From the IMG/VR virus record IMGVR_UViG_3300030372_002152, positions 1 through 50,379 of that record: a stretch of 50,379 bases of DNA; one strand, given 5' to 3'. The translations under genes and the position numbers were made by a program. Below, piece by piece: positions 841-50,239 of the stretch. The notes under the pieces were generated by a model. The model made no database searches and was not told the DNA's origin. It saw only the letters and a list, made by a program, of their open reading frames with translations. Source of the DNA: a virus. Its lineage: Duplodnaviria > Caudoviricetes. The number at the start of each line of letters is the position of its first letter. The stretch's first letter is position 1.

Positions 841-2319
841 ATGGGTGAATCACAGAGTGGCGGTGGAGTAGACACGGACGTAGGCGGTGCCGGTAGAGAT
901 GTAGGTGGTGCAAATTATGGTCAATCTCCAGGGGCAATGGGTGGCAGACAGCCAAACACTGTTCCAGATGTACGACCTAGCATATACGGAAAATCTTTTG
1001 ATCCAGGCGTTTACTCTGAGCCAGAGACATCTATAGTTCCTAGTTTCGATGGCCCTATGGGTTCTGGAGCGAGCACCAATGCAGCAGTTAGAGATTTACA
1101 GCGTTTCGGTAGTGGCATAGCAGCTTTGACGGGGGGATCAAGACCCGAACAAACTTTTTCTCCTAGCTTTACTCCTTCTTCTTCAACCTCTGGCACTATG
1201 CCCACGGTTCAAGGACCTGCAGATAGGAGAATGTCTTTCTCACCTTCTGGCGGCACGGGCGTGTCTCCAGAACAAGTTCGTTCTGAAAGAATGTTTGCAG
1301 AACCTGCTTATGTTTCCCTTTATAATAATCCTGACCCTATGATTCTTCAACCAGACTCTGTTCCTTTCTACGATGACATGGGAGGGAGGCGATTTATACC
1401 CCCTGGCTCTGATACGGGGTTTCCACCAGACGCACCTGCGTATGATCCAACTGACGCAACTGACGCTGCACTAAGAAGAGCAGTTCCTGCGTTAAATGCA
1501 TCGTACAACCGTGCTCCATACCCAGTGGGCGGTGGTACTTCTAGACCAGACCCTGCTTTATTTCCACAAGAATTAGGCGGTGGAACCATAGATAGTCCAC
1601 CGATACTCAGTACTGAGCCTCCTTATGACATAAATAATTTAGAAGCAGGACGACTTGGTGGCTCCAGTGGACTAAGACAATCGCCTGGTGCGATGGGGGG
1701 CAGATACTTCCCAGTTAAAAGTGGTTTAACAGGGGTTTCGGATGATCCCTTTGCGCCTCCTACACGACCAGGTACGGATTTCTTTGGCGAAGGTACACTA
1801 GGCTCTTTAGGAACGGATGAGGCAACGACCCTTGCAAATCTTGTAACAACGGGCAAAAAGGGCAACGCAAAACAAGAAGCACAGAAAAAGACAATAGGAC
1901 AAAGACTACAAGAATTAGGGAAGAAGATATCTGATTTTAGTTTCTCTGATTTTATAGGATTCGTAGGCGACGTTCTTCGAGGCGACCCGAACTATAAAGG
2001 TCCGTCAGAAGCTCAACTTCAACTAGCCCAGGTTCCCGGACCAGGACCCGCTGTTGGTGGAGGCGTACCCTCGCCAAGTGGAGTTGGTGGAGCACCGTCC
2101 GCGATCCAATGTCCACCGGGCTTTAAGTTTGATCCAGTGCAAAACATATGCGTACCGATAGTGGCACCTGCACCGCCAGTGACCACGCCCCCTGCACCAG
2201 GAACCACGGCTCCCGCACCTGCAACTGGAGGTATCTCGGCTATACCGAATGTATATCCATTTACATTGACACCTCCAATCGGAGCACCAATAGGGAATAT
2301 CGCACCCGTTAGATCATGA
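841..2319 (+). CDS. Gly/Pro/Ser-rich, probably disordered protein (possible virion or ejected protein)
   Basis: 492 aa ORF with RBS AGGAG; QSPGAMGGR occurs twice; CPPGFKFDPVQNIC motif; overlaps the TerL start (ATGA). Confidence 0.7.
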   Translation: MGESQSGGGVDTDVGGAGRDVGGANYGQSPGAMGGRQPNTVPDVRPSIYGKSFDPGVYSEPETSIVPSFDGPMGSGASTNAAVRDLQRFGSGIAALTGGSRPEQTFSPSFTPSSSTSGTMPTVQGPADRRMSFSPSGGTGVSPEQVRSERMFAEPAYVSLYNNPDPMILQPDSVPFYDDMGGRRFIPPGSDTGFPPDAPAYDPTDATDAALRRAVPALNASYNRAPYPVGGGTSRPDPALFPQELGGGTIDSPPILSTEPPYDINNLEAGRLGGSSGLRQSPGAMGGRYFPVKSGLTGVSDDPFAPPTRPGTDFFGEGTLGSLGTDEATTLANLVTTGKKGNAKQEAQKKTIGQRLQELGKKISDFSFSDFIGFVGDVLRGDPNYKGPSEAQLQLAQVPGPGPAVGGGVPSPSGVGGAPSAIQCPPGFKFDPVQNICVPIVAPAPPVTTPPAPGTTAPAPATGGISAIPNVYPFTLTPPIGAPIGNIAPVRS

Positions 2320-3779
2320 ACTACCAAGCAGTTCCCGAAGAGGTACTAAAAGAGGTACTTCTTCTTACGGAAGCCAAAAAGAAAATGGATCTCCGTGAAA
2401 AGGCACAGGAGAAGTTTATGCCGTTTGCCCATCATGTGTATGAGGGGTTTATAGAGGGCAGACACCATAGGGTAATTGCAGAAAAACTGGAGAAAGTAGC
2501 GAGGGGCGAGATCAAGAGGCTCATTGTGAATATGCCTCCTCGTCATTCTAAATCTGAATTTGCGTCTTTTATGATGCCCGCATGGTTTTTGGGAAGGAAC
2601 CCTAAATTAAAAATTATCCAAGCAACCCATAATACGGAACTGGCAGTACGTTTTGGTCGAAAAGTAAGAGACTTGATTGCCGATCCACAGTACCAGGACG
2701 TATTTCCCGATACGACATTGAAGGAAGACAGTAAATCTGCGGGAAGATGGCAGACATCAGCAGGGGGCGAGTACTTTGCTGCGGGCGTTGGAGCAGCGGT
2801 CACGGGCCGTGGTGCGGATTTATTTATTATTGATGACCCACACTCGGAGCAAGATGCACTATCGGAGTCGGCATTTGACAATGCGTATGAATGGTATACC
2901 TCTGGGCCTCGACAGCGTCTTCAACCTGGGGGGTCAATTATCCTGGTTATGACGAGATGGGGTAAAAAAGACTTGACAGGGCGATTATTGGCGGCTCAAG
3001 GGAGCGATACAATGTCAGATCAGTGGGAAGTGGTCGAGTTTCCTGCAATTATGCCCTCTGACAAGCCATTATGGCCCGAATTTTGGGATAAAGACACACT
3101 TTTAGGCATAAAAGCGTCGTTACCCGTTGCAAAATGGTCGGCACAGTGGCAACAACAGCCAACTTCGGAAGAAGGAGCGATTGTCAAGAAGGAATGGTGG
3201 AATATGTGGGAGAAAGATGACATCCCCGACGTGAAATACATCATTCAAAGTTACGATACAGCGTTTTCGAAGAAAGAAAGTGCGGATTACAGTGCTATAA
3301 CGACGTGGGGGGTCTTTACATCCGAGAAAGACGGCTCCGACAACATAATTTTGATGGATGCGAAGCGTGGAAGGTGGAGTTTTCCCGAATTGAAGCGTGA
3401 GGCGTATGAAGAATACGATTATTGGGAGCCAGATATGGTGATTATAGAGGCAAAAGCCAGTGGTACGCCCCTTATGGACGAATTACGCCTTCATAACATC
3501 CCTGCTTTGGGGTTTTCACCAGGAAAAGGCAACGACAAAACAACTAGAATGCATATGGTGGCTCCATTGTTCGAGGCGGGTAAGGTTTGGGCACCAGAAA
3601 ACAAGAGTTTTGCTGAAGAAGTTATTGAAGAAATCGCTTCTTTCCCGTATGGTGATCATGACGACTTTTGTGATAGTATGACAATGGCTCTGATGCGTTT
3701 TCGTAAGGGTGGCTTTATTTACCTTGACGGAGAGGACGAAGAAGAGGATTATATACCTAAGATGAGGAACTATTACTAA
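2316..3779 (+). CDS. terL: Terminase large subunit
   Basis: Walker A variant MPPRHSKS, Walker B FIIDDP, coupling motif VMTRW, RNase H-like QSYDTA and HDDFCD. Confidence 0.96.
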   Translation: MNYQAVPEEVLKEVLLLTEAKKKMDLREKAQEKFMPFAHHVYEGFIEGRHHRVIAEKLEKVARGEIKRLIVNMPPRHSKSEFASFMMPAWFLGRNPKLKIIQATHNTELAVRFGRKVRDLIADPQYQDVFPDTTLKEDSKSAGRWQTSAGGEYFAAGVGAAVTGRGADLFIIDDPHSEQDALSESAFDNAYEWYTSGPRQRLQPGGSIILVMTRWGKKDLTGRLLAAQGSDTMSDQWEVVEFPAIMPSDKPLWPEFWDKDTLLGIKASLPVAKWSAQWQQQPTSEEGAIVKKEWWNMWEKDDIPDVKYIIQSYDTAFSKKESADYSAITTWGVFTSEKDGSDNIILMDAKRGRWSFPELKREAYEEYDYWEPDMVIIEAKASGTPLMDELRLHNIPALGFSPGKGNDKTTRMHMVAPLFEAGKVWAPENKSFAEEVIEEIASFPYGDHDDFCDSMTMALMRFRKGGFIYLDGEDEEEDYIPKMRNYY

Positions 3780-43982: not shown

Positions 43983-44148
43983 CTTTTCTTTCCTTCAGTT
44001 CTTGTTTCAGTTTCTTTGCCATCCACATATCGTGCAGATGGCGGTTTCTAATTTGCTTTTGTCGATTGTCGGGAATCACGTCGGATCGTTTACGAATGTG
44101 GTACGGATTCCGTGGACGTTCAATCACGGCTTTAGGTTTTTTTGCCAT
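43969..44148 (-). CDS. Small basic hypothetical protein (59 aa, MAKKPKAVIERPRNP...; not in ORF track)
   Basis: Open minus-strand frame overlapping both neighbours and filling the operon gap. Confidence 0.55.
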   Translation of the reverse strand: MAKKPKAVIERPRNPYHIRKRSDVIPDNRQKQIRNRHLHDMWMAKKLKQELKERKDEDI

Positions 44149-44305
44149 AACTTAACTCATAGTTTCCCTCGCTATCTATTTGAAGATGAGTATAACGAGT
44201 AACACAGTTATTGACCTTACAATAAAGGTCATAATAAACGCCCTTTGCATCAGTAACTTTGTATAGTTTCCAACTTTTAGTTTCTGCTAAATATTTTTTA
44301 GTCAT
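44132..44305 (-). CDS. Hypothetical protein (MTKKYLAE...)
   Basis: Internal Met overlapping the methyltransferase stop. Confidence 0.55.
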   Translation of the reverse strand: MTKKYLAETKSWKLYKVTDAKGVYYDLYCKVNNCVTRYTHLQIDSEGNYELSYGKKT

Positions 44306-45512
44306 TCTTCCATTCCTTATATTGATCCAAGGCAACCTTTAGACAAGAGATACCATCAAAAGCCGATACCACATTATCCAAAGGTGTGTCCTTGGGTAGT
44401 TGTTTCAGTAATTCAAAAATCGTGTCCACTTGAAAGCCATTGCCCAACTGCTTGTACCCTTGGCTCTTGCTCACGCTTTTGCAGTAATCGTCTGGTAAAC
44501 CTTGAAGGCGAGAGCACTCAACAACCGACAACCTTCTCCAAGTATGTGGATCGGTAGTACGCACCCCCGTCATACCTTGATTGCCAAACCCCTTATAATC
44601 CCTTGCCAACAGAGTGGCTGCTTTGGCGATATTGGGTTTAAGTAGCTGTTTTCCTTGACCCCCGACTATATCGGCAATCGGGTAGCGTCCTTGCGGTAGG
44701 GTCGTTGCCAAGTTGTCCTTCTGTACAGTTGTCAAAGCATTCGATTTCTTTTCGCCTTTGACCTCTAAACACGGAACAAGAGCCAACTCCATTTGATCGT
44801 CTTTACGGACTCCATTCTCGTCAAGTCTGCGATTCCGTATGGATGCCGAACTCCATTCGGGTTCGGTGATCGCTACCTTCGGGTGGCGATTCCCCCCACC
44901 CATAGTATTCAAAGTCGGTGCTTTGGCATTCGGTGAATAGATCCTTTTTAGAATATCGTGTCCGTTGATATCGTCTGCATGACCCACTTGCCGACAGTTA
45001 TCGGAACTCGAACCTTGATCCCTTGGAGTGTAGGTTCGGATCTCCTCTTCGGAGTCGGGTTGCAGAATATGATGGATATACCGTTCCCGATCCACGAACA
45101 ACAACGGGTTGACCTTCCAACTTAACCAATAGTTTCGGATTCGGTTTTGAGGACAAAAGATCGCTGAGTTGACCCGAATCGGGTTGACCCCAACTGTTTC
45201 GGTAATGATGTGCTCAAACTCTTTCTTCATCATTACGTTTTCCAACATCCAAACCATATCGGGATTTATTTCCCTCAACTCGTTTAGCAATCGGACATAC
45301 TCAAAAAACAATACGGATCTTGGATCGTCAAAGGCTAACTGCTTGCCCGAAAACGAAAAGCCTTGGCATGGCGAACCCCCACAAAAGAAATCCACCTTGC
45401 CTAGCATCTCGCCCCTCACTTCTCGCACGTCATAATATCGGACGATCCCCTCATGGTTATCGTCCGATACTGCAACGGCAAACTTGTCAATTTCAATTGC
45501 CGTATATTTCAC
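44298..45512 (-). CDS. DNA (cytosine-5) methyltransferase, circularly permuted
   Basis: EID (II), DV (III), GGSPCQGFS (IV), LENV (VI), QNRIR (VIII), RRLSVVECSRLQG (IX), QLGNG (X), then VSAFDGIS (motif I) at the C-terminus. Confidence 0.9.
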   Translation of the reverse strand: MKYTAIEIDKFAVAVSDDNHEGIVRYYDVREVRGEMLGKVDFFCGGSPCQGFSFSGKQLAFDDPRSVLFFEYVRLLNELREINPDMVWMLENVMMKKEFEHIITETVGVNPIRVNSAIFCPQNRIRNYWLSWKVNPLLFVDRERYIHHILQPDSEEEIRTYTPRDQGSSSDNCRQVGHADDINGHDILKRIYSPNAKAPTLNTMGGGNRHPKVAITEPEWSSASIRNRRLDENGVRKDDQMELALVPCLEVKGEKKSNALTTVQKDNLATTLPQGRYPIADIVGGQGKQLLKPNIAKAATLLARDYKGFGNQGMTGVRTTDPHTWRRLSVVECSRLQGLPDDYCKSVSKSQGYKQLGNGFQVDTIFELLKQLPKDTPLDNVVSAFDGISCLKVALDQYKEWKND

Positions 45513-45733
45513 GCGTCCACCTTTTCAAAAACCTTTGACATAATCTCCTCAACGTCATCACAGAGTTCGCAAAAGGTATCCTCAGATTCGGGAGTCCTTA
45601 CCGAATGAATGATTCCATCCTCGTCCTCTTGATCTTCCCAAATCGGATCAAGGGCAAATCTTTCTTGCATCACGGATGCAATCTCAGAATAAAGATAGAT
45701 CCAGTCTTCGGATCGTAATAATACTTTTGACAT
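45509..45733 (-). CDS. Acidic hypothetical protein
   Basis: ORF track; coupled to the methyltransferase. Confidence 0.6.
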   Translation of the reverse strand: MSKVLLRSEDWIYLYSEIASVMQERFALDPIWEDQEDEDGIIHSVRTPESEDTFCELCDDVEEIMSKVFEKVDA

Positions 45734-49350: not shown

Positions 49351-49356
49351 TTGGAT

Positions 49357-49911
49357 ATGACTAGATTATCGAAAACCAAAACTAAAAAGATTGAAGATGC
49401 CCACGATAGGCAACTGACGGATCGCCAAAAAACTTTTGCTAAATTTATTGTGGAAGGAATTTACTCCAATACAGAATGTGCCAGAAAATCTGGATACTCT
49501 CCAAACGTAGCAAAAAAGCAAGCGTCTGTTTTGTTGAACGGAAAAGATTATCCCCATGTCGTGGATTATATTGTTGAACTAAGAGAAGAAAAAGAAAGAC
49601 GCTATGGAGTGACCTTGATGGGTCAGCTTGAAAGACTTCATGAACTCTCAAGAGATGCACAAGAGAATAAACAATTTTCAGCAAGCATAAACGCTGAGAA
49701 AATTCGTTCTGCTTTAGGTGGCTTGTCTACTGACAGAAGATCTTCAGAAGTTACCCACGTTATAGATCAGATGAGCCGTGATGAAATAGTCGCTAGACTA
49801 TCTGCTCTTCAACAAAATTATCCTCAAGCTTTTACCATTCAAGAGGATGTTGAAGATGCCCAAACCCGAAACGAATCTTTGGAACTTATTCCGTCAAAGG
49901 CTGAAGGATAA
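49357..49911 (+). CDS. terS: Terminase small subunit
   Basis: LTDRQKTFAKFIVEG..SNTECARKSGYS HTH, followed by SASINAEKIR...GL. Confidence 0.85.
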   Translation: MTRLSKTKTKKIEDAHDRQLTDRQKTFAKFIVEGIYSNTECARKSGYSPNVAKKQASVLLNGKDYPHVVDYIVELREEKERRYGVTLMGQLERLHELSRDAQENKQFSASINAEKIRSALGGLSTDRRSSEVTHVIDQMSRDEIVARLSALQQNYPQAFTIQEDVEDAQTRNESLELIPSKAEG

Positions 49912-50239
49912 AGGTTACTTTTATACTCGTATAGAGAATCGTAGTGGTGGGGGTATTCCCGATACTTATATTGTTGGCGATCAAGGTTGTTTTTGGGTTG
50001 AGTTAAAGGTAACCAACGGAAACAAAATAAATGTGTCTCCTCATCAAATAGCTTGGCATACTTCACATTCATTAAAAGGGGGTCGGAGTTTTATCTTGGC
50101 TAAGCACCTCTCTTCCTCAATCCTATTTTTGTTTGAAGGGTCAAAGGTTCGGGAATTGAGCACTTCGGGTCTTAAAACAGAAAGCATGGTTCAAGGATCG
50201 TGGAACGAGATTTTTGATACTCTCGAACACAAGATATAG
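49856..50239 (+). CDS. PD-(D/E)xK nuclease, Holliday junction resolvase / VRR-NUC-like
   Basis: PETNLW...RIEN...GIPD...FWVELK...SPHQIAWH; GAGGA upstream. Confidence 0.85.
   Translation: MPKPETNLWNLFRQRLKDKGYFYTRIENRSGGGIPDTYIVGDQGCFWVELKVTNGNKINVSPHQIAWHTSHSLKGGRSFILAKHLSSSILFLFEGSKVRELSTSGLKTESMVQGSWNEIFDTLEHKI

Follow-up and report, generated by a model that had tools for sequence, protein, structure and literature searches.

Features of the locus

The window analyzed here is the whole 50,379-nucleotide stretch of viral DNA in IMG/VR record IMGVR_UViG_3300030372_002152. An open reading frame (ORF) on its minus strand, at 44298-45512, encodes a 404-amino-acid C5 DNA methyltransferase in which the motifs run II-III-IV-VI-VIII-target recognition domains (TRDs)-IX-X, followed by a 7-residue linker and then motif I (residues 380-398). 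We annotate it as a single gene with its motif I relocated from the N-terminus to the C-terminus. The features of the gene and of the ORF before it are given below with their basis in parentheses. The listed homologues are the best 120 of 7242 matches that a protein search returned among 7998 candidates, the window's own protein included.

44298-45512, minus strand: circularly permuted C5 DNA methyltransferase gene, 404 amino acids, GTG start (profile matches; listed homologues)
45477-45509, minus strand: new N-terminus, with strand beta2 and motif II (E7, D9) (position 26 onward of a hidden Markov model (HMM); strand E2-6, predicted local distance difference test score (pLDDT) about 95)
45426-45443, minus strand: motif III (strand beta3, D28-V29) (alignment, HMM, homologue motif counts)
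45354-45389, minus strand: motif IV, catalytic Pro-Cys (C49) (invariant in a 93-sequence alignment; 120 of 120 listed homologues)
45234-45254, minus strand: motif VI (ENV) (93-sequence alignment; listed homologues)
45123-45179, minus strand: motifs VII-VIII (QNR-x-R) (119 of 120 listed homologues)
44397-44540, minus strand: motifs IX and X (residues 325-372) (PF00145 match; alignment)
44376-44396, minus strand: short linker from the old C-terminus (motif X helix) to the old N-terminus (junction lengths)
44319-44375, minus strand: relocated motif I, comprising strand beta1, the FDG-x-S loop and helix alphaA (residues 380-398) (HMM, ratio of nonsynonymous to synonymous polymorphism (pN/pS), model)
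45509-45733, minus strand: upstream 74-amino-acid ORF, its stop overlapping the methyltransferase start, without motif I (ORF list; F-x-G scan)

The protein contains the motifs that define C5 methyltransferases: IV (PC), VI (ENV), VIII (R-x-R) and the S-adenosylmethionine (SAM) motifs I, II, III and X. The Pfam profile PF00145 matched residues 4-372 with profile positions 26-322 (116.1 bits; curated cut-off 22), leaving the first 25 profile positions without an N-terminal match, and TIGR00675 matched residues 6-372 with positions 27-329 (113.3 bits; cut-off 100.65). The first-pass annotation of this DNA had predicted two Pfam matches in swapped order. Instead, generic Pfam gave one, and neither the Pfam nor the NCBIfam models gave a second match on the C-terminal 27 residues. 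An HMM made from 74 distinct canonical relatives of the same subfamily gave two, and they were swapped: residues 2-55 matched HMM positions 26-79, and residues 380-397 matched positions 2-19 (E 1.7e-5). Residues 380-397 correspond to 44322-44375, close to the span at about 44320-44375 first assigned to motif I. When the six-frame translation of the window (1913 segments) was searched with an HMM of motif I only, the methyltransferase ORF came first (E 0.0024).

The GTG start of the methyltransferase ORF overlaps the TGA of the 74-amino-acid ORF, and the reading frame 5′ of this GTG closes at a stop after 4 codons. The same overlap recurs in locus L081, and a homologue of the 74-amino-acid ORF lies near the canonical relatives L003 and L041. 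A search for motif I in the 1.7 kb upstream gave two chance F-x-G matches, neither motif-I-like, in keeping with the first-pass view that the upstream ORF lacks motif I and that the gene is not split.

Conservation of the permuted order

All 120 listed homologues, which are 88-100% identical and lie on separate contigs, start at motif II and have the FDG motif confined to the last 40 residues. Together with the swapped HMM matches, this bears out the order II...X-I read at first pass and supplies the homologues of the same order that were to be sought. Motifs I, II, III, IV, VI, VIII and X, which serve catalysis and SAM binding, are each kept in 119-120 of the 120, the PC, ENV and R motifs being as intact as first described. 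In IMG/VR, the permuted order occurs in 2 of the 80 best loci (of 319), and the rest are canonical wherever the N-terminus is visible. Among metagenome contigs, 22 of 56 loci are clade members; the whole C-terminus is present in 15, and a contig end cuts the other 7.

A contig from another run (X3 record 15) spans IX-X-linker-I, at 44309-44545, and contigs from X2 and X3 span the upstream ORF and the methyltransferase start. Misassembly, which was named at first pass as one of the findings that would undo the permutation, is ruled out by these contigs and by the order common to the listed homologues.

Predicted structure

An AlphaFold model of the protein (pLDDT 79) has the two-domain fold of M.HhaI. 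Residue 1 aligns with residue 34 of M.HhaI and residue 39 of M.MpeI, and the model matches M.HhaI from there on. Strand E380-384 and helix 390-403 are modeled at pLDDT 91-97, and residues 84-403 superpose in order on the permuted enzyme DRM2, reaching residue 403.

The permuted enzyme is predicted to adopt the normal SAM-binding fold. The C-terminal strand would insert between strands beta2 and beta4, where it would join motifs II, III and X in rebuilding the SAM pocket, and the new termini would open the surface loop after helix alphaA. SAM would be bound between motifs I-III and X, and Cys49 would attack C6 of cytosine as in M.HhaI, following established C5 chemistry.

TRD modules and target sites

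The first-pass annotation assigned a single TRD between motifs VIII and IX. The TRD region does lie there and holds three TRD-like modules:

44871-44990, minus strand: TRD-like module 1 (residues about 175-214) (61.5% identity over 39 amino acids to the first TRD of M.phi3TI / SPbeta MtbP)
44703-44861, minus strand: TRD-like module 2 (about 218-270) (relatives among phi92-like methyltransferases and those of Roseobacter phage CRP-603/CRP-9)
44556-44663, minus strand: TRD-like module 3 (about 284-319), of low model confidence (relatives among the methyltransferases of Pelagibacter phage HTVC134P/HTVC309P and uvMED)

Modules 1-2-3 are found in 97 of the 120 listed homologues, a fourth module in 21 and only two matched modules in 2; L001 has a fifth kind. 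The clade has the several tandem, exchangeable TRD modules of multispecific phage enzymes. Since it carries three of them, the enzyme is likely a multispecific anti-restriction methyltransferase. The modules would confer several specificities, one perhaps GCNGC, the site recognized by the first TRD in M.phi3TI and SPbeta MtbP.

The rho11s copy of module 1 has a Glu that fits the inactivity of the rho11s domain. The Glu stands where phi3T, H2 and the permuted protein have Gly (L219 = X05242, L220 = M72412).

The window (1-50379) is strongly depleted of many C-containing sites. CCAGC occurs 2 times versus 51 expected and CGCCG 0 times versus 26 expected, and GCGC, GGCC, CCGG and most 6-base palindromes are also depleted. 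CCAGC and CGCCG are avoided by HTVC134P-like pelagiphages too, a possible clue to host restriction systems.

Comparison with known C5 methyltransferases

We compared the phage enzyme with published systems as described in the accessible text of the reports cited. Albert et al. 2018 built the permutants cp35M.MpeI and cp33M.SssI, both active in vivo (++) (PMC5944983). Like these, the phage enzyme is cut between motif I/helix alphaA and strand beta2, which gives the order II...X-I, and its new termini fall between the motif I helix and the motif II strand as they do in the cp35M.MpeI sequence (S1 Dataset). The engineered enzymes are laboratory products, CG-specific and monospecific. The phage enzyme is natural and fixed in its clade; it carries three TRD-like modules, and its X-to-I linker is shorter. 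In the scheme of the 2018 study its cut is probably Type A.

Among the 20,677 REBASE entries surveyed in the 2018 study, 27 were natural permutants, and the cut lay in the variable region in every case; the authors concluded that routes leaving both domains intact are favored in nature (PMC5944983). In the accessible text of a 2025 classification of 174,874 REBASE sequences, classes C and F are the only C5 topologies (bioRxiv 10.1101/2023.12.13.571470), and that of a 2020 review mentions one alternative motif order (PMC7544214). With its order II...X-I, the phage protein does not belong to the canonical class C (motifs I to X). Nor is it of the M.BssHII type, as its N-terminus is at motif II and IX-X lie at residues 325-372. 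M.BssHII, M.Alw26I, M2.Eco31I, M.Esp3I and M2.BsaI (Type H/J in PMC5944983; class F in bioRxiv 10.1101/2023.12.13.571470) are, like the phage enzyme, natural and prokaryotic with motif X covalently before motif I. However, they are cut in the variable region and have IX-X first, whereas the phage enzyme is cut inside the Rossmann domain and has motif I last.

The first-pass statement that known permutants move IX/X to the front holds for the M.BssHII type and omits the plant DRM permutation. DRM enzymes start at motif VI, with VI-X followed by I-V. Like the phage enzyme, plant DRM2 (PDB 7l4f, 4onj) has contiguous IX-X-I; its sequence matches residues 332-397, and its structure aligns to model residues 84-403 only. 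In DRM2, which is eukaryotic and acts in an RNA-directed pathway, motifs II-V come after motif I, whereas in the phage enzyme they are N-terminal, so the phage enzyme is not of the DRM type. DRM is a further natural permutation, and DRM2 has been described as a duplication plus circular permutation (PMC3227630).

Tandem TRD modules are also found in M.phi3TI, M.H2I, M.rho11sI and SPbeta MtbP of Bacillus phages. These multispecific enzymes differ in having the canonical order, a different core subfamily and no counterpart of modules 2 and 3. Canonical DNMT3-like enzymes of marine phages (L003, L041, HTVC134P gp5, CRP-603 gp10 and phi92 gp043) have TRD modules in common with the phage enzyme and cores that are 50-61% identical, but their motif I is N-terminal where that of the phage enzyme is C-terminal.

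We did not find a natural II-X-I enzyme in the accessible literature, a search outside which lay most subscription papers, Peisajovich 2006 and REBASE itself. In that literature the topology is known only as an engineered form. The proposal of a new natural permutation class stands to this extent, while the topology itself already existed in the active cp35M.MpeI and cp33M.SssI (PMC5944983). The generalization that natural permutation is confined to the variable region fails here: the phage enzyme is natural and conserved, yet its cut lies inside the SAM-binding domain. As an evolved counterpart of the poorly soluble cp35, it makes the proposed SAM-affinity penalty testable. Annotation pipelines will label such permuted genes N-terminally truncated. 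The chemistry of the permuted enzyme and its likely anti-restriction role are ordinary.

Origin of the permuted clade

We reduced 430 aligned rows to 42 representatives, dropping 4 unclassified rows, and made a tree from 148 conserved columns. The permuted clade falls among canonical marine phage genes, beside L003 and L040 (91/79, long branch). Proteins of another permuted order, IV...X-I-II-III (IV-first proteins), lie across a 99/95 branch from it, and the approximately unbiased (AU) test rejects a joint clade with them (p 0.018). L003 and L041, which are canonical in order, have their gene neighborhood and three TRD modules in common with the window. On these sequence comparisons, the permuted clade is placed among the canonical methyltransferases of HTVC023P-like phages. 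The L003 and L041 genes (L003:2127-3257, L041:2908-4224) come from the same phage group, have the modules in the order 3-1-2 (here 1-2-3) and have a divergent motif I.

The distance from the GN of motif X to the F of motif I is 28 residues in all 141 clade junctions and 27-32 residues in other permutants and fusions. We infer that an in-frame fusion joined a canonical gene from the same phage group to a second copy that included at least motif I; the original motif I and whatever else the second copy contained would then have been lost.

It is possible, although we think it the less probable course, that the same enzyme gained its X-linker-I end by recombination from an existing IV-X-I-II-III permutant and not by fresh canonical duplication. 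Two observations speak against simple duplication: the junction resembles the consensus of the P0125 family (Pro, Thr, Leu and VVS-x-FDGISC are similarly spaced, over 28 versus 27 residues), and motif I differs considerably from that of the nearest canonical relatives, L003 and L041. The motif I of the clade also averages 62% identity to the IV-X-I-II-III family. However, its IX-X are about as similar to canonical genes as to either IV-first family (mean identity 0.46-0.48 throughout), and the IV-first sequences sampled came from other habitats or from Bacillota genomes. As junctions of 27-29 residues recur in unrelated permutants, including a DRM-like protein, junction length may be convergent.

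Probable activity and role of the permuted enzyme

Together, our data are best explained by a single-chain permuted phage C5 methyltransferase that has a normal fold, methylates several short sites and so evades host restriction; we hold this account to be probable. The permuted methyltransferase is very probably active, and its likely role is to shield phage DNA from host restriction enzymes. In 16 coding sequences, pN/pS was 0.054 for motif I, 0.079 for IX-X, 0.096 for IV-VIII, 0.147 for II-III and 0.68 for the last six residues. The moved motif I is under purifying selection.

Several points weigh against this account. The pN/pS pairs are non-independent and uncorrected, and pS over motif I is also low (0.19). 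The structural alignments are known by their first and last aligned residues. The alignment used for folding included IV-first permutants, which supply motif I coupling and may favor the placement of motif I, and an earlier model from 15 near-identical sequences was poor (pLDDT 31.6). Motif I reads AFDGISCL, without the Gly after Cys seen in relatives. Site retention did not track the TRD modules, in an analysis whose controls failed. In the tree, the clade branch is long (1.39) and the sister support is not starred, and no direct intermediate of the II-X-I clade was found. Finally, the engineered cp35M.MpeI was poorly soluble, with activity in extracts far below that of the wild type (PMC5944983).

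An alternative, a folded protein that is selected for binding DNA or SAM and almost or wholly lacks methyltransferase activity, for example a decoy on restriction sites, is improbable. The length of the branch and the changes at conserved positions (GNGF for GNGW, the lost Gly of motif I) would fit such a protein. So would the site content of the genome: since GGCC, CCGG, GCGC and CCAGC are strongly avoided, methylation is not relied on for those sites. Against this, the catalytic and SAM motifs are all kept in 119-120 of the 120 listed homologues, selection is strongest on motif I and IX-X, and the clade continues to gain and lose TRD modules in frame.

A chimeric assembly, a gene split between this and another ORF, or a C-terminal match arising by chance can be all but dismissed: although the C-terminal motif I escapes the generic Pfam and NCBIfam models, the subfamily HMM matches it (E 1.7e-5), no other motif I scores within the window, contigs from independent runs span both junctions, and the order is common to all 120 listed homologues on separate contigs.

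Other rearrangements in the DNMT3-like phage subfamily

Each stage of permutation by duplication is found in this subfamily: tandem genes, full fusions and truncated duplicates. Viral contigs contain arrays of 2-4 canonical C5 genes (L045:2093-4625, L049:1339-4786, L051, L052, L054, L057 and L061), in which each start codon overlaps the end of the preceding gene just after motif X, out of frame. Five of 120 proteins listed (P0132-P0136; 558-562 amino acids) are full in-frame fusions of two C5 methyltransferases, and two proteins (P0129 and P0130) have an extra IX-X before a complete enzyme. Both kinds are likely duplication intermediates.

The second permutation, IV...X-I-II-III, is cut between motifs III and IV and was found in 109 of the 120 listed relatives of P0125 and in 67 of 79 frames from 78 Bacillota-dominated loci. 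This family (P0125, P0137-P0250; L140-L217) has two sub-families, one of them in Bacillota genomes. Its order is absent from the natural types in the accessible text of the 2018 survey (PMC5944983).

On balance, we lean toward a model in which the DNMT3-like C5 methyltransferases of phages form a natural hotspot for circular permutation in the Rossmann domain, with coexisting duplication stages, the IV-X-I-II-III family and an independently arisen, active, multispecific II-X-I clade. If this is true, permutation by duplication could be traced step by step in nature, contrary to the published view of cuts in the variable region only.

Phage context

The window, a 50-kb contig from a marine phage, encodes terminase, portal, capsid, PolA and an SNF2 helicase and has Pam3-like genes. 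Pelagibacter phage HTVC023P has a capsid protein 73% identical to the one encoded here, and the PolA of the window is 49-56% identical to those of HTVC023P-type phages. The genes neighboring the methyltransferase are common to the window and all 26 clade loci. Among the listed window ORFs, of which a Pfam scan covered 12, we noticed no further methyltransferase gene and no restriction gene.

The contig probably represents the greater part of a circularly permuted genome. At its end, 49351-50239 holds a nuclease-like ORF and a gene resembling those for the terminase small subunit (PF03592), and the large terminase is at 2316-3779. The small ORF directly downstream of the methyltransferase (44132-44335) is an accessory gene, and contigs from the X3 and X5 runs skip 44139-44302 of the window.
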